A stretch of 64,000 bases of DNA from Chakrabartia sp. (GTDB lineage: Bacteria > Pseudomonadota > Alphaproteobacteria > Sphingomonadales > Sphingomonadaceae), in the NCBI GenBank assembly GCA_046074265.1, contig JBJTNW010000012.1, positions 21,594-85,593 of the forward strand, given 5' to 3'. Made by a program: the position numbers and the translations under genes. Shown piece after piece: positions 5,909-28,406 of this stretch. The notes below the pieces were generated by a model that saw only the letters and a list, made by a program, of their open reading frames with translations, had not been told where the DNA came from and did not search any database. Each line of letters begins with the position of its first letter. The stretch's first letter is position 1.

Positions 5909-8900
5909 ATGCCGTTTTCGCCCTTCGTTCCTTTGCGCGTCTTTTCCGCCTTTACCATGTTGGAAGGCGCGATCACGCCCAAGGATATCGCGAAGCGCAC
6001 CAAGGAACTTGGGTTTCCCGCTGTCGCCTTGTGCGACCGTAACGGCCTGTATGCAGCGCCCCAAATTTCAGATGCGTGCAAAAGCGCGGGTGTCCAGCCG
6101 ATTATCGGGACGCTTTTGTGCGTGCTGCGCCCCGGCCGCCCTGAAGGCACGAGCCCGGTTTATGATTGGCTGGCTCTCTATGCGCAGGATGAGGCGGGCT
6201 ATGATAATTTATGTGCGCTGGTATCGGCCGCGCACCTCGACCGGCCTGTGGAAGAGCCGCCCCATGTCCGCTGGGAAAAGCTGGCCAAGCATAACCAAGG
6301 CCTGATTGCGCTGACCGCCGGCGGCGAAGGCGCGCTTTGCCGCTTGTTGGCGGAAGATCAGCCAGCTGCTGCCCAAGATTATGCCCGGGCGCTGACCGAC
6401 CTGTTTCCCAACCGGCTCTACATAGAAATCTCGCGGCGGCTTGATCCGGTGGAAGGCGCGTCAGAAGCAGCCCTGCTTGACCTTGCTTATGCGATGGACT
6501 TGCCGCTCGTCGCGACCAATCCGGCTTGTTATGCAGAGGCCGATTTTCACGCCGCGCATGATGCGATGTTGTGCATTTCGGCAAGCGCTTATCTGGAAAG
6601 CGAAGACCGGCCCCGCAGTTCTCCCGATGCGTGGATGAAGCCTGCCAAGGACATGCAGCGCCTGTTTGAGGACCTGCCCGAGGCGCTCGCCAATACGCTG
6701 GTCGTGGCGCAACGCTGTGCGGTGATGGCGCCCAAGCGCGCGCCGATTTTGCCAACGGTGGGCGACAAGGATGGCGAGGCAGACCAGCTGCGCATTGATG
6801 CCAGAGCGGGGCTTGAAAAGCGGTTGGAGCTCATCCCGGATGCGGACCGCGACGCCTATTTTGAACGGCTGGATTTTGAGCTCAACGTCATCATCCAGAT
6901 GGGCTTTCCCGGCTATTTCCTCATCGTTGCCGATTTCATCAAATGGGCGAAAGATCAGGGGATTGCGGTGGGGCCGGGCCGTGGTTCTGGCGCGGGTTCG
7001 GTCGTCGCCTGGGCGCTGACCATCACCGATCTGGATCCGATCAAACTGGGCCTGCTGTTCGAACGCTTCCTGAACCCGGAACGCGTGTCCATGCCAGACT
7101 TCGACATCGACTTTTGCGAAACGCGGCGGGGCGAAGTCATCCGCTATGTTCAGCAGAAATATGGCAGCGACCATGTGGCCCAAATCATCACCTTTGGGAC
7201 GATGAAGGCGCGCGCGGTGTTGAAGGATACCGGCCGGGTTCTTCAGATGAGCTATGGGCAGATGGATCGGCTGGCAAAGCTTGTCCCCAACCATCCGACC
7301 GACCCGTGGACGCTCGACCGCGCGTTGAACGGCGTGCCGGAACTGGCGGCTGAATATAAGAATGAATATCAGGTCCGGCAGTTGCTTGATCTGGCGATGA
7401 AGCTGGAAGGCCTGCCGCGCCACAGCTCCACCCATGCTGCGGGCGTGGTGATCGGGGACCGCCCGCTTGACCAGCTGGTCCCGCTCTATCGCGATCCGCG
7501 CTCGGATATGCCCGTCACCCAGTTCGACATGAAATATGTTGAGGGCGCGGGGCTGGTGAAGTTTGACTTTCTGGGCCTCAAAACCCTGTCGGTCATCCAG
7601 CGCGCGCTGGAACTCATCGCGCGGCGCACGGGCGATCGGCCCGATCTGGATACCCTCAGCTGGGATGATGAAGGCGTTTATGCGCTGCTCCAAAAGGGTG
7701 ACACGGTTGGCGTGTTCCAGCTGGAATCGGAAGGGATGCGCCGCACGCTGGCCGCCGTCCGCCCCTCAAATTTTGGCGATATCATCGCGCTCGTTTCGCT
7801 CTATCGCCCGGGCCCGATGGATAACATCCCGCTCTTTGGCGACCGCAAGAACGGCCGCGTGCCCATCGAATATCCGCACCCGCTGCTCGAAGGCATTCTG
7901 TCGGAAACCTATGGCATCTTCGTCTATCAAGAACAGGTGATGCAGGCCGCGCAAATCTTGGCCGGCTATACGCTGGGTGGCGCCGATATGCTGCGCCGCG
8001 CGATGGGCAAGAAGATCAAGGCGGAAATGGATGAACAACGTGCCATTTTCGTGAAGGGCTGTGCCGACCATCACGCAATTGACGCGGCCAAGGCGAACGA
8101 ATTGTTCGACTTGATCGACAAGTTCGCGGGCTATGGCTTCAACAAGTCGCACGCCGCCGCTTATGCGCTGCTCGCCTATCAGACGGCGTGGCTAAAGGCC
8201 CATTACCCGGCGGACTTCTTCGCCGCCTCGATGAGCTTTGATATCTCCAACACCGACAAGCTCTCCATCTTCATGGATGATATGCGCCGTCTGGGTGTGC
8301 CTGCGCTCGCGCCGTGCATCAACCAGAGCGGCGCGGATTTTGAAGTCCATCCTGCGGAAGAAGGGCTGGCCGTGCGCTATGCCTTGGGCGCGCTTAAAGG
8401 TGTGGGCGAAGGCGCGATGGAGCAGATTGTGGCCGAGCGGAGCGCCAAGGGGGCCTTTGCCTCGCTCGATGATTTTGCCGACCGCATCAGCCCGCGTCTC
8501 GTCAACCGTCGCCAGATTGAAAGTCTGGCCGCTGCCGGGGCCTTTGATGCGCTGGAGCCAAACCGGGCGGGCGTCCATGCCATGGCAGAAACCATCCTCG
8601 CCGTCGCCGCCTCGGCCGAGGCGGCGCGAACAAGCGGGCAGGGTGGCCTGTTTGGCGGCGATGATCATAAGGTAGATGCGATCAAGCTGCCCGCCAATGC
8701 CCATTGGTCGCTTGCGGACCGGATGATGCAGGAACGCGAATCCTTCGGCTTTTATTTTTCGGCGCATCCGGTGGACCGCTATCGCCATGTGGCGACCGCG
8801 CATGGCGCGCGCACCTATGCTGCGCTTTGCGCCCAGCCCGCGCCGGCCGATGGCGCGCGCACGGGCGGCGTGATGGCGGTGTTGGTGGAAGATGTGCGGT

Positions 8901-9385
8901 GGCGCACCTCGGCCCGCGGCCGGCGCTATGCCAATTGCGCGATGTCGGATGCGACCGGCCAGTTTATCGCCAGCTGCTTTGACGAACTGACCGCCAAGGA
9001 ACTGGAAGAAGCCGCCAAGAACAATGTCTGCGGCTTGCTGACGGTGGAACTTGATCGCCAGCCGGGGGAAGAAACCCCGCGCATCACCGTGAAGCGCCTT
9101 CAGCCGCTTGAGGGGCTTGCCGCAAACAGCCGATTAAAGGCGGTGGTCCGCACCTCCAGCCAAAACGCGCTGCTAGCGCTTGCCGCGCTGTTGGGCGGCG
9201 AAAGCGGCGGGCGCGGTGAAATCATCGTTGAGGCCGAGGTGGAAGGCGGGCGGCGGGCGACCCTGCGGCTTGGGCGGACCTTTGCGCTCGATGCCGACCT
9301 TGCTGCGCGGATCGAAGCGATTGACGGCGTTGACGATGTAACGCTGTCCGCGGCAGACGGGCCAAGGCTGGCGCTGGTGTCCTGA
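5909..9385 (+). CDS. dnaE: DNA polymerase III alpha subunit
   Basis: N-terminal PHP domain, GPGRGSGAGS, RVSMPDFDIDF catalytic motif, STHAAG, KFDFLGL, FAGYGFNKSHA, C-terminal OB fold. Confidence 0.97.
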   Translation: MPFSPFVPLRVFSAFTMLEGAITPKDIAKRTKELGFPAVALCDRNGLYAAPQISDACKSAGVQPIIGTLLCVLRPGRPEGTSPVYDWLALYAQDEAGYDNLCALVSAAHLDRPVEEPPHVRWEKLAKHNQGLIALTAGGEGALCRLLAEDQPAAAQDYARALTDLFPNRLYIEISRRLDPVEGASEAALLDLAYAMDLPLVATNPACYAEADFHAAHDAMLCISASAYLESEDRPRSSPDAWMKPAKDMQRLFEDLPEALANTLVVAQRCAVMAPKRAPILPTVGDKDGEADQLRIDARAGLEKRLELIPDADRDAYFERLDFELNVIIQMGFPGYFLIVADFIKWAKDQGIAVGPGRGSGAGSVVAWALTITDLDPIKLGLLFERFLNPERVSMPDFDIDFCETRRGEVIRYVQQKYGSDHVAQIITFGTMKARAVLKDTGRVLQMSYGQMDRLAKLVPNHPTDPWTLDRALNGVPELAAEYKNEYQVRQLLDLAMKLEGLPRHSSTHAAGVVIGDRPLDQLVPLYRDPRSDMPVTQFDMKYVEGAGLVKFDFLGLKTLSVIQRALELIARRTGDRPDLDTLSWDDEGVYALLQKGDTVGVFQLESEGMRRTLAAVRPSNFGDIIALVSLYRPGPMDNIPLFGDRKNGRVPIEYPHPLLEGILSETYGIFVYQEQVMQAAQILAGYTLGGADMLRRAMGKKIKAEMDEQRAIFVKGCADHHAIDAAKANELFDLIDKFAGYGFNKSHAAAYALLAYQTAWLKAHYPADFFAASMSFDISNTDKLSIFMDDMRRLGVPALAPCINQSGADFEVHPAEEGLAVRYALGALKGVGEGAMEQIVAERSAKGAFASLDDFADRISPRLVNRRQIESLAAAGAFDALEPNRAGVHAMAETILAVAASAEAARTSGQGGLFGGDDHKVDAIKLPANAHWSLADRMMQERESFGFYFSAHPVDRYRHVATAHGARTYAALCAQPAPADGARTGGVMAVLVEDVRWRTSARGRRYANCAMSDATGQFIASCFDELTAKELEEAAKNNVCGLLTVELDRQPGEETPRITVKRLQPLEGLAANSRLKAVVRTSSQNALLALAALLGGESGGRGEIIVEAEVEGGRRATLRLGRTFALDADLAARIEAIDGVDDVTLSAADGPRLALVS

Positions 9386-21917: not shown

Positions 21918-21985
21918 GGCCGGCCCGGCGCAAGGCTCCCAATTCGGGCGTTGCGCTGGGGCGGGCTTTGCGGCATGGCGCGGCC

Positions 21986-22264
21986 ATGACTGATACGCCT
22001 CCTGATCGCCTCTCCATTGACCCCGCCAGCCCCTATTTTGACGTAGAGGTTCTGCGCCGGGGTGTTGGCATTCGTTTTCGCGGTGTCGAGCGCCGCGATG
22101 TCGAGGAATATTGCATGTCGGAAGGCTGGGTGCGCGTGCAGGCGGGCAAGACCATGGATCGCAAGGGCAAGCCGCTTTTGCTCAAGCTCTCTGGCCCGGT
22201 TGAAGCGTGGTTTGAGCAGGCCGGGGATGCGCAGGCAGGTGAGGAGCCTGCCGCCGAGGCGTGA
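21986..22264 (+). CDS. DUF3297 family protein
   Basis: PPDRLS.DP.SPYF...GVGIRF.G.ER.DVEEYC.SEGWVRV pattern recognised from memory. Confidence 0.75.
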   Translation: MTDTPPDRLSIDPASPYFDVEVLRRGVGIRFRGVERRDVEEYCMSEGWVRVQAGKTMDRKGKPLLLKLSGPVEAWFEQAGDAQAGEEPAAEA

Positions 22265-22920
22265 GCCTGACGCTGCCCTTTGCGGGGCAGGATTTTAAGG
22301 TCGTTGGCGGCAAGGCCCTGTTCTGGCCGGCGCAGCGTGCGATTATCGTCGCCGATCTTCATCTGGAAAAAGCCAGCTGGTTTGCCGCGCGCGGCCAGAT
22401 GCTCCCCCCGCATGACAGCCTTGCCACGCTGGAGGCGCTGGGCAGGCTGATTGGCGAAACAGGCGCTCGGCGGCTCTGGTGCCTTGGCGATAACTTCCAT
22501 GATTCGCAGGGCCCCGCCCGGCTGACGCAGCCGGCCCGGGCGCTCCTTGGCCAATTGGCCAAGGCGCTGGACTGGGTCTGGATTACCGGCAATCATGATG
22601 CTGCCTTGGCGGCAGGCCTGACCGGCACCGTGCAGGCAGAGGCCGAAGTTGCGGGCCTGTTGCTCCGGCATGAGGCGGACCCCAAAGAGCTTCGGCCTGA
22701 AGTGTCAGGCCATTTTCATCCCAAACATGGCAGCATCGCGCGCGGCCGACGCGTCACGCGGCCCTGTTTTGTCGAAGGGCCAAGCAAGCTTATTCTGCCC
22801 TCTTTCGGGGCTTTGACGGGCGGTCTGGCGGCGACCGATGCGGTGATCCGGGCTGCACTGGGTGACATCCGGGCCATCCATGTGCCGACGCGGGACCGGC
22901 TGGTGCGCTTCGCGGTCTGA
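22261..22920 (+). CDS. pdeM: Ligase-associated DNA damage response metallophosphoesterase/endonuclease PdeM
   Basis: VADLHLEKAS, GQMLPPHD, CLGDNFHD, ITGNHD, LRHE, SGHFHPK, LPSFG.LTGG; GTGA overlap with the upstream gene. Confidence 0.85.
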   Translation: MSLTLPFAGQDFKVVGGKALFWPAQRAIIVADLHLEKASWFAARGQMLPPHDSLATLEALGRLIGETGARRLWCLGDNFHDSQGPARLTQPARALLGQLAKALDWVWITGNHDAALAAGLTGTVQAEAEVAGLLLRHEADPKELRPEVSGHFHPKHGSIARGRRVTRPCFVEGPSKLILPSFGALTGGLAATDAVIRAALGDIRAIHVPTRDRLVRFAV

Positions 22921-22923
22921 ACC

Positions 22924-24114
22924 TTAGCGCCAGCGCAGATTGGCGCGGCTCAAATCCTTTACGGATTTTGCGCCCATCAGCCGCATATCGCGGGCAATTT
23001 CATCTTGCAGTTTGCCGATGATCCGCTCCACCCCGGCTTGGCCGGCAGCGGCCAGTGCGTAAAGATAAAGCCGCCCGCCCGAACAGGCCTTGGCACCCAC
23101 CGAAAGCGCCTTCAGCACATGGCTGCCGCGGGTGATGCCGCCATCGCAGATGACATCAATCTTATCGCCAACGGCATCGACGATTTCGGCCAGCTGGTCG
23201 AACGGGGACCGGCTGCCATCAAGCTGCCGTCCACCATGGTTGGAGACCATGATCGCAGTCGCGCCGATATCCACCGCGCGCTTGGCATCTTCAACCGACA
23301 TGATGCCCTTCAGACAGAATTCTCCGCCCCAATCCGCGCGCACCTTTTCGGCGGTGGACCAATCCATCGAGGTGTCGAGCATCGTGCTGAAATAATCCTG
23401 GATGGAAATCGCCTGTTGCGACCCTTCCTGCACATGGTCCTTCAGGTTCGACAGCTCAAATTTCTCGCGCAGCAGATAGTTGAGCGTCCAGCGCGGGTGA
23501 AAGGCAAAATCAAAGGCCGAAGAGACGGTCAATTTGGGCGGCGAGGTAAAGCCCGTCTGCATGCAGCGTTCCCGATTGCCGCCGACAATGGTGTCGACCG
23601 TTAGGGCAATTGCGTCAAATTTGGCGGCCTTGCAGGCGTCAACCATCGCGGTGTTCAGCCCCTTGTCCTTATGGATGTAGAGCTGGAACATCTTCGGTGT
23701 GGAAATGGTGCGGCCAATCTCCCCAATAGAGACGGTCGCAAGGCTGGAGATGCCAAAATAGGTGCCAAATTTTTCCGCCGCCCGCGCGACCGCGCGTTCG
23801 CCTTGCCAGTGGAACACCCGCTGGAGTGCGGTGGGGGAAAGGAAGAGCGGCATCGCAATCTCGCGGCCCATCACCGTCGTGCGCATGTCGATATCGGCCA
23901 CCCCGGCCAGCACATTGGGCACCAGATCGCAGCGTTCAAAGCTTTCGGTATTGCGCCGTCGCGTCACTTCGTCATCGGCGGCGCCATCGATATAGTGAAA
24001 GACGGGCCCAGGCAGCCGGCGGCGCGCCAATTCTCGAAAATCCGCGACATTATTGCAGTCATTCAGACCAAGCTGCCATTTGCGGGCGGCCAATCGAGAG
24101 GCTTCGTTGGTCAT
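22924..24114 (-). CDS. lldD: FMN-dependent alpha-hydroxy acid dehydrogenase (L-lactate dehydrogenase-like)
   Basis: FHYIDGAADDE, LTVDT..GNRER, LKGIMS, SNHGGRQLD, DGGITRG. Confidence 0.85.
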   Translation of the reverse strand: MTNEASRLAARKWQLGLNDCNNVADFRELARRRLPGPVFHYIDGAADDEVTRRRNTESFERCDLVPNVLAGVADIDMRTTVMGREIAMPLFLSPTALQRVFHWQGERAVARAAEKFGTYFGISSLATVSIGEIGRTISTPKMFQLYIHKDKGLNTAMVDACKAAKFDAIALTVDTIVGGNRERCMQTGFTSPPKLTVSSAFDFAFHPRWTLNYLLREKFELSNLKDHVQEGSQQAISIQDYFSTMLDTSMDWSTAEKVRADWGGEFCLKGIMSVEDAKRAVDIGATAIMVSNHGGRQLDGSRSPFDQLAEIVDAVGDKIDVICDGGITRGSHVLKALSVGAKACSGGRLYLYALAAAGQAGVERIIGKLQDEIARDMRLMGAKSVKDLSRANLRWR

Positions 24115-24186
24115 GTCAAATCCTTTGCTCGGCCGCACAGGTGCGCGGAATGCTCCCCGCCTCCCTTGCGTCTTGCGTGCGCGGCG

Positions 24187-25377
24187 TCAATCGCTGTCGG
24201 GAAGCGCTGCTTGGTCCGCTGCGCCAATAAAGGTCGCAATTGCATGGGCACAGCGCGCAGAAGCGGTGCCGGGGCCGGTTGCAACAGTTGCCTCGGCTGC
24301 GGCCCGCTGCGCGGCGAGATAGGGCGTGGCATCTGCGGTCAGTGCGTCCAGCGTGGCGGGCAGTGCAGCCACATTGTCCAGCACCGGGCCAAGCGCCCAA
24401 TGACCGTAATTGGCGTCATGCTGCCAATCGACGGGGTGCGATTTGAGAAAAATCGCCGGGCGCGGCCGCATGATCCATTCATAAATCTGGCTGCTGACAT
24501 CGCCCAGATAGATGTCGCCGGCCAGAGTATAGGTCATATCGACCGAGCGGGTGCTGCCCGGATCAATCATCATATGATCAAGATGGCGATACCGATCGGG
24601 AACCGACCCCCGCCATTTCAACTCGCGATGTTCAAGCGAGCCATGGATCAGCTTGCGGAACAGCATGACATGCGGCGCAAACACCAAGTTATAGCGATCC
24701 TGCTCGGCAAAGAAGCGCAGCACATCTGGCCCAAAGCGATACCAAGAGGAAAGCTTGGGGTCGAAATGCGGGTTGTAGACCACTGTTGGCCGGTCATTGT
24801 TGAACAATTTGGGCTTGCGCGTCAGATCAAGCGTGTCGAACTTTGGATAGCCGCACACTTTGATGCGCGAGGCGAGCATCGGGTGGCGGTCCAGCATGCG
24901 GCCGCGGGTTTTTTCGCCGGCAACAAGGATCAGGTCAAACAGGCGCAGCTCATCTGAAAAGCCAACCGAGCGATCGCCGCTGCCATGTGGAATGCAGATC
25001 AACGCCGGGCGCGTCAGCTGCCAGCGCGAGCGCAACAAGGTAGAGGTGAATTCTGGCACGACCAGCGCATCAAAACCCTTCAGATAGGCCAGATGCCGCG
25101 ACAGGATGGCAACACGCCGGGCCGGGACAATGCGGCTCAGCGCGGAGGTGATGCCCTCCATCCAGGGGGAAAGCCCAAGCTCAACCACCCGCAGGCCAAG
25201 CCGGGCTGCGTCGTCGCCCAGCAGAGCGGAAACGGCGTTGCGTTGTGCGGCGGTCGACACCGCAATCTCAATATCGAGCGCGGGATGCGCCTGAGCCAGT
25301 GCCCGAGCGACGGGCAGGCTATGGGCAATCTGGTGAACATCTTCGTGGTTGAAGAGAAAGCAGACCGGCTTGGTCAT
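24187..25377 (-). CDS. TagF/CDP-glycerol glycerophosphotransferase-like GT-B protein
   Basis: IPHG, GYPKFD, VVYNPHF, FAPH and GDVSSQIYEW parallel the TagF motifs WHG, GYPRND, LYAPTF, HP and TDYSS..FDF. Confidence 0.55.
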   Translation of the reverse strand: MTKPVCFLFNHEDVHQIAHSLPVARALAQAHPALDIEIAVSTAAQRNAVSALLGDDAARLGLRVVELGLSPWMEGITSALSRIVPARRVAILSRHLAYLKGFDALVVPEFTSTLLRSRWQLTRPALICIPHGSGDRSVGFSDELRLFDLILVAGEKTRGRMLDRHPMLASRIKVCGYPKFDTLDLTRKPKLFNNDRPTVVYNPHFDPKLSSWYRFGPDVLRFFAEQDRYNLVFAPHVMLFRKLIHGSLEHRELKWRGSVPDRYRHLDHMMIDPGSTRSVDMTYTLAGDIYLGDVSSQIYEWIMRPRPAIFLKSHPVDWQHDANYGHWALGPVLDNVAALPATLDALTADATPYLAAQRAAAEATVATGPGTASARCAHAIATFIGAADQAALPDSD

Positions 25378-26042
25378 GCAAAATCCAAAATGGCCCAGCC
25401 GCGCTCACCAGCAAGTTTGCGCAACCTTCGGCTGGGGTTCACGGCAAAGCAGCGTTTCGCCCAATCAAACATCGGCGCATCTGACGAGCTGTCAGAATAA
25501 AAGCTGATCTGCCGGGCCGCGTGCAGCCGGGGATCAGCATGGCAGGCCGCTTCAACCATGAGGCGCTTGGTCGCACCATAGCAATTATCGCCCTCTATCC
25601 GGTGGGTATAATGCCCTTGCGGCGCGCGGTGCTGACGGGTGGCGACAACCACATCAAAGCCCAGCATCCGGCCCAGCGCCTCGGCATAATAATCGGGCGC
25701 GGCGGTCGCCAGCATCAGCAGGGCGCCGCGCTTGCGTTCGGCTTCCAGATGGCGGCGGGCCGCAGGCAGGATATTGCGGGCCAGCATGAAGGCGGCAAAG
25801 CGCTGGCCCAGAAGCGCCATATCGTCGGACTTTACGCGACGCCCGATCATCAAAAGAAAGCCAAATTCCTTCAGGCTTTTTCGGCTTACGGCCCCGAGGG
25901 CATGGGCGATCATGGCGACAACCCAGAGCGGCAGCAGCACCAGCCGCCACGGCGCGCGATGAAGGGCTGCAAAAATGAGGAAGGGCGTGTAAGTAGCGAC
26001 CTTCGTCAAGGTGCGGTCCAGATCGAAGATCGAAACGTCCAT
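25374..26042 (-). CDS. HAD-IB family phosphatase
   Basis: FDLDRTL motif I, LATAAP motif II, NCYGATK motif III, YSDSSSDAPM motif IV. Confidence 0.85.
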   Translation of the reverse strand: MDVSIFDLDRTLTKVATYTPFLIFAALHRAPWRLVLLPLWVVAMIAHALGAVSRKSLKEFGFLLMIGRRVKSDDMALLGQRFAAFMLARNILPAARRHLEAERKRGALLMLATAAPDYYAEALGRMLGFDVVVATRQHRAPQGHYTHRIEGDNCYGATKRLMVEAACHADPRLHAARQISFYSDSSSDAPMFDWAKRCFAVNPSRRLRKLAGERGWAILDFA

Positions 26043-26075
26043 AGGCTTGGCCTATGCTCCATTTGAGGCAAAAAG

Positions 26076-26870
26076 GTGACAAAAAGCGTAAGCGGATGGA
26101 CGGCCATCATCCTCGCCGGGCAGCGACCGGGCACGGACCCGCTTGCCGCACATTTTGGCGAGGCGTGGAAGGCGCTGGTGCCGATTGCCGGTGTACCCAT
26201 GGTGACGCGGGTTGTTGAAACCCTGTCGCACGTGCCGGGCATCGCGCGCATCCTTGTTCTGGCGCAAGAGCCGGGCGTGCTGGCCGCGGCGGTCCATGCG
26301 GGCGGCGGGGCAGATATTGTGACCAGCGGCAGCGGCATTTCCACCAGCATTTTGGCTCATGCCGGTGGCGAGGCGGCACCCTGGCCGGTGTTTGTGACCA
26401 CCGCAGATCACCCGCTGCTAACGGCAGCGATGGTAGAACAGTTTTTGCAGGACGCGTCCAGCGGTGCGGCGGACATTGCCGTTGGCATGGTTGAGCGGAG
26501 GGTCATGCAGCGCGCCTATCCCGATAATCGTCGCACCTGGCTTCGCTTTGCCGATGGGGATTGGTCGGGTGCCAATCTATTTGCGTTGCGCACCCCCAAG
26601 GCCCGGGCGGCGCTGACCTTATGGTCGGAAGCGGAGCAGGACCGGAAAAAGGCGTGGAAGCTGTTTCTCCATTTTGGTCCGCTGCTGGCCCTGCGGGCTT
26701 TGACGCGCACCATTGGTTTGGCAGCGGCCCTGCGCAAGGCCGGGCGACGTCTGAAAATTGAGGCGCAACTGGTGCCTATGGCGGCGGCAGAAGCGGCGAT
26801 TGATGTCGATAAGCCCAGCGACCATGCGCTTGCCGAGGCGATATTGCGCGCTCGGTCACGCCAGCCTTAG
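26076..26870 (+). CDS. Nucleotidyltransferase (NTP transferase/cytidylyltransferase-like)
   Basis: AIILAGQR...KALVPIAG.PM, TTADHPLL, IDVDKPSD; GTG start. Confidence 0.8.
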   Translation: MTKSVSGWTAIILAGQRPGTDPLAAHFGEAWKALVPIAGVPMVTRVVETLSHVPGIARILVLAQEPGVLAAAVHAGGGADIVTSGSGISTSILAHAGGEAAPWPVFVTTADHPLLTAAMVEQFLQDASSGAADIAVGMVERRVMQRAYPDNRRTWLRFADGDWSGANLFALRTPKARAALTLWSEAEQDRKKAWKLFLHFGPLLALRALTRTIGLAAALRKAGRRLKIEAQLVPMAAAEAAIDVDKPSDHALAEAILRARSRQP

Positions 26871-28406
26871 TCGGCGGCCAACCGCACCCAGCGAGCCCCG
26901 GTCGACACGCGGCAGGGCAAAGCGGCAGCTGGCCCACAGGCTTGCCAGCAGCAAGAGGATCAGCAGCGGCAGGGCGATGGCCAAAGGCAACAGGTTGCTG
27001 GCCAGCCCAAGGACAAAGCCGATCAGCGAGACAAGCATGGCGCGCAGGGCCACCTGCGCAAAGGGCGCGGCAAAGGGGTGGATGCCATCTTGCCGGCGCA
27101 GTTGCCAGACCGGGACGGCCGAGGTGATGACAAGCCCGCAGGCAACCGCGATGGACATGCCCGTCAGCCCCGCATCTGGCATCAGCGCCGCGACCAGCGC
27201 AAAAGCAATCAATAGACCAAGGACGCTGCCCAGATATTGGCTCGAATAGCGCGAGACGACCTGCTGGATGGGGGCGGCGGCCCCGATGACGGCTTCGGCA
27301 AGCCGGGCAAGCAAAAGGAGGGCCAGCGCCATCGTCGCCGTTTCCATGTCCTGACCAATGGCCCGCAAGATCACCGGCCCGCCGGCAATCATCACCAGGC
27401 TGACGGGCAGGGCCACCGCCAGCGATACGCGCGTGGCAAAGCCGTAAATATCGGCCACCGCCTGCTTGCCGCCGGTAGAGGCCGCCGATGCAAGCGGCGA
27501 CAGCACATAGGCAAAGGCCAGCCGGATCGTCTGGACGATGGAAGAGACTTTGCGTGCCAGCGCAAATTGCGCCCCGGCAACGGCGCCCTCAGCTCCTGGG
27601 AGCATGGCGTTGAGCGCCAGCGTGGGGGCATCGCTGAACAGGCGCGCGACAAGATTGGCCGGCATGACGGAAATGCCGGCAAGCCATGTGTCGCGCCAGA
27701 TGTGTTGCGTACCCGGGCCACGCATCAGCAGCGATAGGTCAAAATTGCGGGCAAGCAGCCTGAGGCACAACCCGCAGATCACCAGCAGCGAGGCGAGATG
27801 GGCATAAAAAAGCGCGATGGTGCCGGGCGCACCCAATGAAAAGGCAAAGGCAATGGCCAGCCGAACCACCTGTTCCCAAAAAAGGCGCAGACGGATTTCC
27901 GCCCCAAAGACGCGGCGTGCCCGCAAGGCCGATGTGCCCACCTCTACAAAGGCCCAAAGGGGCAGGGCCCAGGCGAATAAGGCGATGAAATGCGCCAGCC
28001 GCGCCGCATCTTCCTGTGCGGCGTTGAAGATGTGCGCCAAGTGCGGCCCAAAAATTGTCGCCAGCAACGCCAGCACAAGGCACGGAGCAACGCCCAGCGT
28101 CATTGCAGCACGCAGCGCGGCCACCGCCTCCTGTTCGCTGCTGGCTTGGGGGACGGTGCGTTGCAGTGCCGATGTCATCCCCAGATTGGCGATATTCTGA
28201 ACCAGCGTAATCGCCGCCCAAAGGGCTGTGTAAATGCCATAGCCCGCTAGGCCGAACAGCCACACATAAGCCGGCTGGGCGACCACCTCGACCACCGCGC
28301 CAAGCCGGGCGAGCAGGGTTGTGCCGGCCCCTTTTGCCACATCATGGCTGGTAATTTCGCCCGCGCGAATTTGGGTTTCATCAGTCAAAGCGGGGCCTTG
28401 TTGCAC
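26856..28406 (-). CDS. MOP-superfamily (Wzx-like) polysaccharide/lipid flippase
   Basis: About 14 hydrophobic segments; LFGLAGYGIY...NLG and AQFALARK helix patterns. Start may be TTG 28388. Confidence 0.7.
   Translation of the reverse strand: MQQGPALTDETQIRAGEITSHDVAKGAGTTLLARLGAVVEVVAQPAYVWLFGLAGYGIYTALWAAITLVQNIANLGMTSALQRTVPQASSEQEAVAALRAAMTLGVAPCLVLALLATIFGPHLAHIFNAAQEDAARLAHFIALFAWALPLWAFVEVGTSALRARRVFGAEIRLRLFWEQVVRLAIAFAFSLGAPGTIALFYAHLASLLVICGLCLRLLARNFDLSLLMRGPGTQHIWRDTWLAGISVMPANLVARLFSDAPTLALNAMLPGAEGAVAGAQFALARKVSSIVQTIRLAFAYVLSPLASAASTGGKQAVADIYGFATRVSLAVALPVSLVMIAGGPVILRAIGQDMETATMALALLLLARLAEAVIGAAAPIQQVVSRYSSQYLGSVLGLLIAFALVAALMPDAGLTGMSIAVACGLVITSAVPVWQLRRQDGIHPFAAPFAQVALRAMLVSLIGFVLGLASNLLPLAIALPLLILLLLASLWASCRFALPRVDRGSLGAVGRRLRLA

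Follow-up and report, generated by a model that had tools for sequence, protein, structure and literature searches.

Four tightly packed genes raise the question of whether a TagF-like transferase, a HAD phosphatase, a nucleotidyltransferase and a flippase act together, and whether their product is a decorated lipid or a teichoic-like polymer. The whole stretch of DNA analysed (64 kb) is referred to as the window, and the host of the module is a freshwater sphingomonad. Features were taken from the ORF list, apart from the spacer, which was read from the sequence:

24187-25377, minus strand: gene for the 396-aa TagF-like protein
25374-26042, minus strand: gene for the 222-aa HAD-IB phosphatase
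26043-26075, no strand: 33-bp divergent spacer separating the HAD/TagF-like operon from the nucleotidyltransferase gene
26076-26870, plus strand: gene for the 264-aa MobA-like nucleotidyltransferase
26856-28406, minus strand: gene for the 516-aa predicted MOP-superfamily flippase

The packing described in the earlier note was confirmed by the ORF list: the TagF-like and HAD genes overlap by 4 bp (25374-25377), the divergent gap is 33 bp, and the nucleotidyltransferase and flippase genes are convergent with an overlap of 15 bp (26856-26870). Through the ATGA overlap the HAD gene is translationally coupled to the TagF-like gene. A GAGG lies in the spacer 8 nt ahead of the GTG start, and a search of the same 33 bp for a sigma-70-like consensus found none. 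By domain calls the module is flanked by an lldD-like gene and hslUV, which are unrelated housekeeping genes. The eight species-level loci nearest to this one keep the four-gene order and the 15-bp overlap, and both overlaps are kept within that clade. The exact four-gene order is confined to this narrow clade.

The TagF-type motifs claimed earlier were all present in the 396-aa translation, namely PHG (130-132), GYPKFD (176-181), YNPHF (201-205), APH (234-236) and DVSS (293-296). All five were invariant or nearly so across a 22-sequence family alignment (A1) and are therefore not chance strings; the invariant motifs of the family are PHGxGD, GYPKF, YNPHF, APH and GDxSSQxYE. The AF2 model (pLDDT 88.6, pTM 0.87) was matched by Foldseek to GT-B enzymes with E about 3e-11. 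UDP-GlcNAc 2-epimerases and GT4 enzymes headed the ranking; the matches listed included no TagF or TarL structure. Against PF04464 the protein scored 15.1 bits, under the Pfam cut-off of 22.1 bits; two orthologues scored 28 and 23 bits, and 11 of the 22 family members matched. The DxSS block of the family aligns with DYSS of TarL, and a Litorimonas orthologue matches the NCBIfam TarF and TarL models. Some family members are fused to a GT2 domain. The GT-B/TagF assignment of the earlier note thus stands in two parts, a predicted GT-B fold and a TagF-family affinity from profiles and alignment. The protein is predicted to be a soluble GT-B enzyme of a divergent TagF/Glyphos_transf branch and a candidate phosphotransferase of the CC_1167 family, named after a Caulobacter gene described below.

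The 222-aa protein matched HAD PF12710 (E=1.5e-23) and TIGR01490 (93.8 bits), with weak matches to histidinol-phosphatase and PgpC models. Its DxDxT motif is intact (D7, D9, T11) and an SDSSSD motif is C-terminal. The 264-aa protein matched NTP_transf_3 PF12804 (E=7.6e-14), and residues invariant in its family (alignment A2) include LAGxR, K32, TTxDxxLL, SGxN, RK and DVDK. Its AF2 model (pLDDT 92.7) was closest to PDB 2dpw by Foldseek (TM 0.77/0.87), followed by KdsB, NeuA, IspD and GlmU, and the family profile matched 2dpw with E=5e-41. The enzyme is predicted to be MobA-like and of the TTHA0179 family, with Caulobacter CC_1153 as its probable counterpart by synteny. The 516-aa protein scored 28.0 bits against Polysacc_synt (cut-off 28.2) and 26.5 bits against MurJ, and also matched MatE. 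It is a predicted polytopic flippase of the MOP superfamily (Wzx/MurJ-like). Compared with the flippase family that adjoins TagF-like genes elsewhere, it gave an hhalign probability of 93% (E=3.4e-7) and is only distantly related to the flippase of other taxa.

Litorimonas taeanensis has these four gene types side by side and all facing the same way within an spt cluster, in the order spt, 304-aa gene, DAGK_cat, LptF/G x2, DUF2141, 381-aa gene, NTP_transf_3, flippase, HAD, Glyphos_transf. The four proteins are 42%, 37%, 26% and 21% identical to those of the window; the 37% value is that of the nucleotidyltransferase (full length, gene following the bCerS-position gene) and the 26% value that of the HAD protein (E=8e-18). 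In Novosphingobium colocasiae a group made up of NTP, a 307-aa gene and DAGK_cat is arranged divergently to a second one, TagF-like x2 with a flippase, and the relatives in Novosphingobium adjoin a ceramide-kinase-like gene and a CpgC-position gene. The order in Acetobacter garciniae is flippase, TagF-like x2, PMT_2, GT4, NTP, FA_hydroxylase, LptF/G. Neighbours within 8 kb of the TagF-like gene were counted in the best 80 species-level loci: a nucleotidyltransferase was found in 56 (29/80 within 500 bp), a MOP flippase in 36, a HAD phosphatase in 22 and a DAGK_cat kinase in 13. These loci belong to Sphingomonadales, Acetobacteraceae, Hyphomonadaceae and a few MAGs; the three named groups are sphingolipid-making lineages. 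One ORF fuses a TagF-like domain to a nucleotidyltransferase domain 48% identical to the 264-aa protein. This single fusion may reflect an indel artefact in a long-read MAG. The comparative evidence favours a paired action of the TagF-like enzyme with the CC_1153-type enzyme.

The eight closest loci, Litorimonas, Novosphingobium and the 80-locus counts bear out the co-occurrence of the gene set in other genomes. Between the (sphingo)lipid and the teichoic-like polymer left side by side in the earlier note, the sphingolipid was favoured, as Litorimonas, Novosphingobium and Acetobacter have the gene set within or next to clusters of spt, ceramide-kinase-like and LptF/G genes. The suggested link to serine palmitoyltransferase genes was seen in Litorimonas; in the window, a homologue search of the 64 kb found no spt, lipid-kinase, LptF/G or bCerS-like gene. 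The sphingolipid link therefore rests on the loci of relatives, and "complete" was too strong a word for the module.

The sphingolipid cluster of Caulobacter (CC_1152-1168, 17 genes) includes CC_1167, CC_1166 and CC_1153 (Olea-Ozuna et al. 2024, PMC11324152). In that study CC_1167 (CCNA_01225) is an IPR007554 glycerophosphotransferase that has S. wittichii and Z. mobilis homologues, CC_1166 (CCNA_01224) is a flippase candidate (IPR002797), and CC_1153 (CCNA_01211) is MobA/CofC-like and required for ceramide diphosphoglycerate (CPG2). Mutants of CC_1167 show cofitness with spt mutants; CC_1167 was set aside, its role in phosphosphingolipid synthesis being judged improbable, and among the three genes a lipid phenotype (CPG2 loss) is published for CC_1153 only (PMC11324152). 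The Caulobacter counterparts are annotated already and characterised only partly.

Since the four genes are related to these poorly understood cluster genes, their most likely role is to decorate a ceramide-based outer-membrane lipid and flip it. We consider it fairly probable that they form a conserved module for sphingolipid head groups and their flipping, present here as a detached copy. Both statements are based on the observed gene identities, protein folds and kept gene neighbourhoods, from which we infer the mechanism, donor, acceptor, nucleotide and order of steps. The MobA-like enzyme (CC_1153 type) would activate a small phospho-compound with an NTP, most likely CTP; candidate substrates are glycerol phosphate, phosphoglycerate and perhaps an intermediate in the form of phosphorylated ceramide. 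Working on the cytoplasmic side of the inner membrane, the TagF-like GT-B enzyme (CC_1167 type) would take the phospho-group of the NDP-activated donor, attach it to a hydroxyl on a ceramide-based acceptor and release NMP, the invariant H131 being the putative catalytic base and H236 a likely second catalytic histidine. The HAD-IB phosphatase may then strip a terminal phosphate from the new head group, in the way that Pgp acts after PgsA; alternatively it may provide the dephosphorylated substrate. The MOP flippase (CC_1166 type) would bring the completed anionic sphingolipid into the periplasmic leaflet for outer-membrane export. Genes for ceramide synthesis, the ceramide kinase and the CpgC-type step would lie in other parts of the genome.

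The best-surviving alternative, itself unlikely, is that the module modifies a finished glycosphingolipid or other outer-membrane lipid, for example by placing a phosphoglycerol- or phosphoglycerate-type group on the sugar of GSL-1, instead of building a phosphosphingolipid head group on ceramide itself. Glycosphingolipids are what sphingomonads are mainly known for (Zik et al. PMC9393093), and in Erythrobacteraceae-type and Acetobacter loci the TagF-like/NTP pair has GT4 genes as immediate neighbours. The partners in Novosphingobium and Litorimonas, however, are ceramide-kinase-like and CpgC-position genes, not glycosyltransferases, and in Caulobacter the homologue CC_1153 takes part in making CPG2.

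Second among the alternatives, and judged improbable, is a teichoic-acid-like poly(polyol phosphate) or another surface glycan or capsule with phospho-decoration, anchored on a polyprenyl or a glycolipid, involving no ceramide and exported in the Wzx manner. TagF, TarF and TarL are the only sequence families matched by the transferase, TagF-like capsule polymerases are known from Gram-negative bacteria (PMC5974469), and the Polysacc_synt/Wzx type of the flippase, the GT2 fusions and the GT4 and PMT_2 genes adjoining in some loci point the same way. Against this, the 396-aa protein lacks the extra N-terminal domain carried by TagF-family polymerases (TarL paper, PMC10901376). No priming phosphoglycosyltransferase, Wzy, Wzz or TagGH-type gene was found around the module in the window, and genes of the lipid-kinase, LptF/G, FA-hydroxylase and spt types are what recurs nearby in other loci.

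A CMP-ulosonic acid route, offered as an alternative in the earlier note, is highly improbable. In such a pathway a sugar-acid phosphate would be dephosphorylated by the HAD enzyme and a CMP-sugar made by the nucleotidyltransferase, with the GT-B protein serving as a glycosyltransferase of KpsS/KpsC type. An adjacent HAD and cytidylyltransferase recall KdsC/KdsB, KdsB models matched the 264-aa protein weakly (E about 1e-5), and KdsB and CMP-NeuAc synthetases are its next structural neighbours behind 2dpw. This support is of a generic fold: the KdsB similarity is limited to the shared nucleotide-binding half (24 bits against cut-offs of at least 193), the HAD enzyme is of subfamily IB and not of KdsC type, the transferase family matched Glyphos_transf, TarF and TarL only and never Capsule_synth or GT30, and no ulosonic-acid synthase gene lies nearby in the window. 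That the four genes adjoin by accident and do not act jointly, as their housekeeping flanks and the narrow clade of the exact order might suggest, is the most doubtful explanation of all, given the overlaps kept in the clade, the same four families contiguous in distant Litorimonas, the pairwise linkage across orders and the fused TagF-like/NTP ORF.

Compared with known systems, the 396-aa protein shares the GT-B fold of TagF/TarF/TarL (PF04464; PDB 3L7I-M, 8VA1), the CDP-polyol phosphotransferases of wall teichoic acid. The His directly after a beta-strand of the N-terminal subdomain lies in PHG, with Pro for the Trp of WHG in TagF/TarL, the D-x-S-S block resembles TarL DYSS, and the profile matches are weak but specific. 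The protein is much shorter, without the N-terminal polymerase domain, and unlike TagF/TarF/TarL it is found in Gram-negative, LPS-less or sphingolipid-making lineages. Among solved structures, Thermus thermophilus TTHA0179 (PDB 2DPW) is nearest to the nucleotidyltransferase, over the full length including the C-terminal helical part; TTHA0179 is a hypothetical transferase without assigned function and so gives no substrate clue. In F420 biosynthesis the MobA-like CofC makes an NDP-phosphoacid that a second enzyme transfers to a hydroxyl (the CofC/CofD pair), and PgsA followed by the HAD-IB phosphatase PgpC in phosphatidylglycerol synthesis is a precedent for transfer then dephosphorylation; the window proteins have weak sequence similarity to CofC, MobA and PgpC, a mechanistic analogy and not family membership.

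With CpgD and CpgA of Caulobacter (CTP:phosphoglycerate cytidylyltransferase and CDP-alcohol phosphatidyltransferase, PMC12275187) the module shares a proposed logic, NTP activation followed by phospho-transfer to a lipid hydroxyl, giving an anionic ceramide head group. The enzymes differ: CpgD is PF00483/IMPCT-like and CpgA a membrane PF01066 protein, whereas the window has a TTHA0179/MobA-like enzyme and a soluble GT-B enzyme. CpgD, the model named in the earlier note, was accordingly rejected as a relative of the nucleotidyltransferase in favour of CC_1153, and CpgA as the TagF-like counterpart in favour of CC_1167. Equivalence to CC_1167, CC_1166 and CC_1153 was drawn from published domain and orthologue tables and Litorimonas synteny, not from direct Caulobacter sequence comparison; on this basis both sets comprise glycerophosphotransferase, flippase and MobA/CofC-like nucleotidyltransferase families, and the Litorimonas nucleotidyltransferase is placed as CC_1153 is, after the bCerS-position gene. 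CC_1153 and CC_1167 are 14 genes apart in Caulobacter, whereas the window has a compact stand-alone cluster off the ceramide core, with a HAD-IB phosphatase that is absent among the 17 Caulobacter cluster genes. The Caulobacter genes and the relatives of the window genes are both linked to spt, ceramide-kinase and LptF/G genes.

The four genes of the module were read from the ORF table and confirmed in translation, and lie as follows.

24187-25377, minus strand: TagF-like gene, encoding P0001 (396 aa)
25374-26042, minus strand: HAD phosphatase gene, encoding P0002 (222 aa)
26076-26870, plus strand: nucleotidyltransferase gene, encoding P0003 (264 aa)
26856-28406, minus strand: flippase gene (516 aa)

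The tight packing described in the earlier note was recovered in every detail, with a 4-bp overlap, a 33-bp divergent spacer and a 15-bp convergent overlap, giving a compact four-gene unit which could be expressed or deleted whole. The module is flanked by housekeeping genes: the gene for an lldD-like FMN-dependent 2-hydroxyacid dehydrogenase borders it at the TagF-like end, and hslU/hslV at the flippase end. Farther out in the window lie mlaA, a photolyase-like gene, aroA, a POT transporter and amidohydrolases. The base composition of the region is flat, and a promoter and terminator scan gave no signal exceeding shuffled expectation. The loci nearest to that of the window were those of Chakrabartia and Sphingomonadaceae MAGs. 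The genes beyond the TagF-like end of the module are listed below.

22924-24138, minus strand: lldD-like FMN-dependent 2-hydroxyacid dehydrogenase gene, 48 bp downstream of the TagF-like gene and on the same strand
21968-22264, plus strand: DUF3297 gene
22261-22920, plus strand: Metallophos gene (219 aa), overlapping the DUF3297 gene by 4 bp
22033-22671, minus strand: domain-less ORF (212 aa), antiparallel to the DUF3297/Metallophos pair

No terminator-like site was found between the TagF-like and lldD-like genes, and the two may be co-transcribed in the window and in the related locus L002; in the remaining close relatives they are 0.6-1.4 kb apart. The lldD-like gene was rejected as a pathway member because it adjoins the module in the nearest genomes only. 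The Metallophos ORF was considered as a CC_1158-like phosphoesterase and dropped, since it is linked in the closest relatives only and never adjoins TagF-like genes elsewhere. As a side observation, the DUF3297 and Metallophos proteins are 68-81% conserved in relatives and the 212-aa minus-strand ORF ∼50%; from this weaker conservation the latter is probably a shadow ORF.

P0001 gave no Pfam match at default thresholds. With relaxed thresholds the sole match was Glyphos_transf (PF04464) at 15.1 bits (E = 0.011), under the cut-off of 22.1, which was passed by the orthologues P0005 (28 bits) and P0031 (23 bits). PF04464 was matched by 11 of 22 family members at E ≤ 0.01, and no other family was matched consistently. 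The orthologue from Litorimonas matched the NCBIfam models TarF (4.5e-5) and TarL (7e-4). Neither P0001 nor the Litorimonas orthologue gave a useful match in searches of PDB sequences; the best PDB match of the family profile was TarL, at an E-value of only 0.2, with GDvSSqiYE aligned to the TarL segment SDYSSLIYE. All five TagF-type motifs quoted in the earlier note (PHG, GYPKFD, YNPHF, APH and DVSS) were found and are invariant or nearly so across 22 aligned homologues of 45-72% identity. A relationship to KpsS/KpsC, also raised there, was not borne out, as Capsule_synth (PF05159) was absent from Pfam scans of P0001 (even at E ≤ 10) and of 21 homologues.

The AF2 model of P0001 (pLDDT 88.6, pTM 0.87) has two Rossmann-like subdomains and is that of a GT-B protein, the fold anticipated for P0001. 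Foldseek returned 230 PDB matches to the model at E ≤ 0.001, and the 50 shown were all GT-B enzymes, which confirms the fold. The top matches were UDP-GlcNAc 2-epimerases (TM ∼0.6), PglA and MshA; TagF and TarL structures were absent from the 50 shown, and the ranking obtained with this model does not set TagF apart from other GT-B enzymes. In the TarL cryo-EM paper (PMC10901376) the defining features of the family are its GT-B domain and a pair of invariant histidines, of which the first belongs to a W-H motif that follows a beta-strand; the pair is H444 and H584 in TagF and H300 and H433 in TarL. H131, H204 and H236 are invariant in the 22-sequence alignment of the P0001 family. H131 (in P-H-G) follows strand 125-128 of P0001, as H300 of TarL follows beta15. 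H236 lies 57 residues before the DxSS block, compared with 39 in TarL, and P0001 has an inserted hairpin at 244-255. By its position and this spacing, H236 would be the likelier second catalytic histidine.

P0003 matched the MobA-like family PF12804 (E = 7.6e-14), and L13-A-G15, R17, K32 and T108-T-x-D111 are invariant in its family alignment, which agrees with the GT-A-like nucleotide-binding fold and the LAGxxR, K and DxP(L) motifs of MobA-like/TTHA0179 enzymes. The family profile matched PDB 2DPW, the uncharacterised Thermus protein TTHA0179 and the nearest solved structure, at E = 5e-41, and the P0003 model (pLDDT 92.7) superposed on 2DPW with TM-scores of 0.77/0.87. The next structural neighbours were the cytidylyltransferases KdsB, NeuA and IspD together with GlmU, which share the common core only; the cytidylyltransferases among them hint that P0003 may use CTP. 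The comparison with CpgD made in the earlier note did not hold at the level of family, as CpgD (CCNA_01210) is a PF00483/IMPCT-like enzyme and P0003 has no PF00483 match. By position and family P0003 appears instead to correspond to the Caulobacter protein CC_1153. Thermus and Deinococcus have phosphoglycolipids with a glyceroyl (glycerate-derived) unit, and for this reason the P0003/TTHA0179 family might handle phosphoglycerate-type substrates more widely.

P0002 matched PF12710 (E = 1.5e-23) and TIGR01488 (64.3 bits, cut-off 45), and fell short of TIGR01490 (93.8 bits, cut-off 98.3). Its translation has an intact catalytic motif (D7-L-D9-R-T11) and C-terminal acidic motif (S183-D-S-S-S-D188), which places it in HAD subfamily IB. 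It received no equivalog assignment and showed weak likeness to the histidinol-phosphatase and PgpC models. The 516-aa flippase, hydrophobic throughout on inspection, scored just below threshold against Polysacc_synt (28.0 bits, cut-off 28.2) and MurJ (26.5 bits, cut-off 27.4), and 17.7 bits against MatE. By hhalign it is a distant homologue, with a probability of 93%, of the family of flippases that neighbour TagF-like genes in other genomes.

Neighbourhoods were compared across species, each represented by a single genome, and at least 569 TagF-like loci were found. Neighbours within 8 kb on each side of the TagF-like gene were counted for the best 80, which came from Sphingomonadales, Acetobacteraceae, Hyphomonadaceae/Robiginitomaculaceae and a few gammaproteobacterial or Myxococcales MAGs.

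Genes near the TagF-like gene in the best 80 loci
P0003-type nucleotidyltransferase: 56 of 80 (29 within 500 bp)
MOP flippase: 36 of 80
Second TagF-like paralogue: 24 of 80
HAD-IB phosphatase: 22 of 80
DAGK_cat lipid kinase: 13 of 80
307-aa domain-less protein: 10 of 80

In Litorimonas taeanensis the four gene types of the window stand side by side within the serine palmitoyltransferase (spt) cluster, in the order spt, 304-aa gene, DAGK_cat, LptF/G, LptF/G, DUF2141, 381-aa gene, NTP_transf_3, flippase, HAD, Glyphos_transf. Novosphingobium colocasiae has the nucleotidyltransferase, a 307-aa gene and DAGK_cat divergent from two TagF-like genes and a flippase, and the order in Acetobacter garciniae is flippase, two TagF-like genes, PMT_2, GT4, nucleotidyltransferase, fatty-acid hydroxylase, LptF/G. 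Linkage to spt, bCerS, ceramide-kinase and LptF/G2 genes, as in the Caulobacter cluster, was found for the Litorimonas orthologues and in part for Novosphingobium and Acetobacter. It was not found in the window, where the spt, kinase, LptF/G and 381-aa genes of Litorimonas are without homologues. The 304/307-aa neighbour was expected to be CpgC (Tam41-like) and gave no Pfam or NCBIfam match, so that the CpgC assignment is by position only; this agrees with the published description of CpgC as a protein without a conserved domain (Zik et al., PMC9393093). A DUF2141 gene recurs beside the sphingolipid kinase, nucleotidyltransferase and LptF/G genes of Litorimonas and Novosphingobium loci (L082 5223-5798, L083 5479-5991 and L070 3264-3836), and its product is a candidate accessory of sphingolipid clusters.

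The TagF-like family comprised 336 clusters at 50% clustering (E ≤ 1e-30). Its tree separates, with 100% support, into two deep clades: the upstream members of tandem pairs fall in the first, and the downstream members and all single copies, including that of the window, in the second. The duplication is therefore ancient. Tandem paralogues often overlap by 4 bp (for example L008, L017/L083, L026, L030, L044 and L081), and the lineage of the window retains the clade-B copy only. In P0224 (703 aa, L084 8001-10112, an Erythrobacteraceae-type MAG) a TagF-like domain (1-385) is joined in a single ORF to a P0003-like domain (429-686) of 48% identity to P0003, between a Polysacc_synt flippase and a GT4 gene. 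The case was seen once, on a long MAG contig, and the fusion could be genuine or the product of an indel artefact. The chief value of the locus lies in the comparative evidence that the TagF-like and CC_1153-type enzymes probably act as a pair.

Three cluster representatives of the family (P0239, P0249 and P0281) are fused to N- or C-terminal GT2 domains or to Methyltransf_24, a hint that head groups carrying sugars or methyl groups may be the substrates of some relatives. Both TagF-like genes of L027 (a MAG labelled Aurantimonas) are near-identical to those of L029 (a Sphingomonas MAG), with branch lengths of 0-0.015, and the likeness of L027 is probably due to wrong binning or labelling of the contig, not to transfer. 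The TagF-like gene at L078 7962-9137 (a gammaproteobacterial MAG) is in two ORFs (7962-8540 and 8574-9137), as the result either of decay to a pseudogene or of a frameshift in the assembly.

For the four-gene module, the identities of the genes, the protein folds and a linkage conserved in relatives are established. The cautious reading of the earlier note, in which a (sphingo)lipid or a teichoic-like polymer is built by activation, transfer, dephosphorylation and flipping, is supported. The module is not, as had been suggested, complete by itself: the window is without ceramide-core genes. The sphingolipid link is established for orthologues by their gene neighbourhood and would extend to Chakrabartia from these relatives. 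From family chemistry and the precedents of PgsA/Pgp, TagD/TagF and CofC/CofD we infer four steps. The P0003-type donor synthase would carry out an NTP-dependent activation, P0001 would perform a TagF-type phosphotransfer onto a ceramide-based acceptor, the HAD enzyme would dephosphorylate the product, and the MOP protein would flip the lipid. A ceramide-independent teichoic-like polymer, for which the TarF and TarL matches speak, is less well supported given the spt-linked orthologues. Decoration of a glycosphingolipid sugar is less well supported too. The CMP-ulosonic acid route offered as an alternative is also less well supported: KdsB is among the structural neighbours of P0003, but the best KdsB model reached 24.6 bits where its cut-off is 193, and the TM-scores were only 0.54-0.61. 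Chance adjacency of the four genes is less well supported in view of their conserved linkage.

Bacterial sphingolipids can take the place of LPS in the outer membrane, and genes for the synthesis of their head groups and for their flipping are of interest. The comparative result yields a testable hypothesis for the ceramide-based pathway, with a donor-synthase/transferase pair followed by a phosphatase and then a flippase. An improbable extension is that TagF-like enzymes build a ceramide-anchored oligo- or poly(phosphoglycerate/glycerol phosphate), a MOP-flipped 'sphingo-teichoic acid', in LPS-less sphingomonads and their relatives, functionally replacing the anionic LPS core. In that extension the CC_1153-type enzyme would supply an NDP-activated donor, and the tandem paralogues, which resemble the TagB/TagF pair in layout, would serve as primase and polymerase in the manner of TagB and TagF.

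Probable counterparts of these genes have been described in the 17-gene Caulobacter sphingolipid cluster (PMC11324152). There CC_1167 is listed as a glycerophosphotransferase (IPR007554) whose homologues are Swit_4739/4514 and ZMO1734/1777. It is cofit with spt and was discounted as probably unrelated. CC_1166 is a candidate flippase (IPR002797), its flippase role being a proposal, and CC_1153 is a MobA/CofC-like protein whose deletion abolishes ceramide diphosphoglycerate (CPG2) (PMC11324152). CpgD (CC_1152) is a different nucleotidyltransferase, which makes CDP-glycerate (PMC12275187), and CpgA is a PF01066 membrane enzyme. The literature search found no function assigned to CC_1167 or CC_1166, and a search for CC_1167 with a Hyphomonadaceae TagF-like orthologue gave no Caulobacter entry in the best 120 matches. 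The left part of the Litorimonas cluster parallels the published Caulobacter order spt-cpgC-cpgB...lptG2/F2-bcerS-CC_1153. The locus is a further instance of a gene set already annotated and only partly characterised; relative to the literature searched, the linkage and the one fusion of CC_1153-type and TagF-like genes are new, and so is the presence with them, across several orders, of a MOP flippase and a HAD-IB phosphatase.
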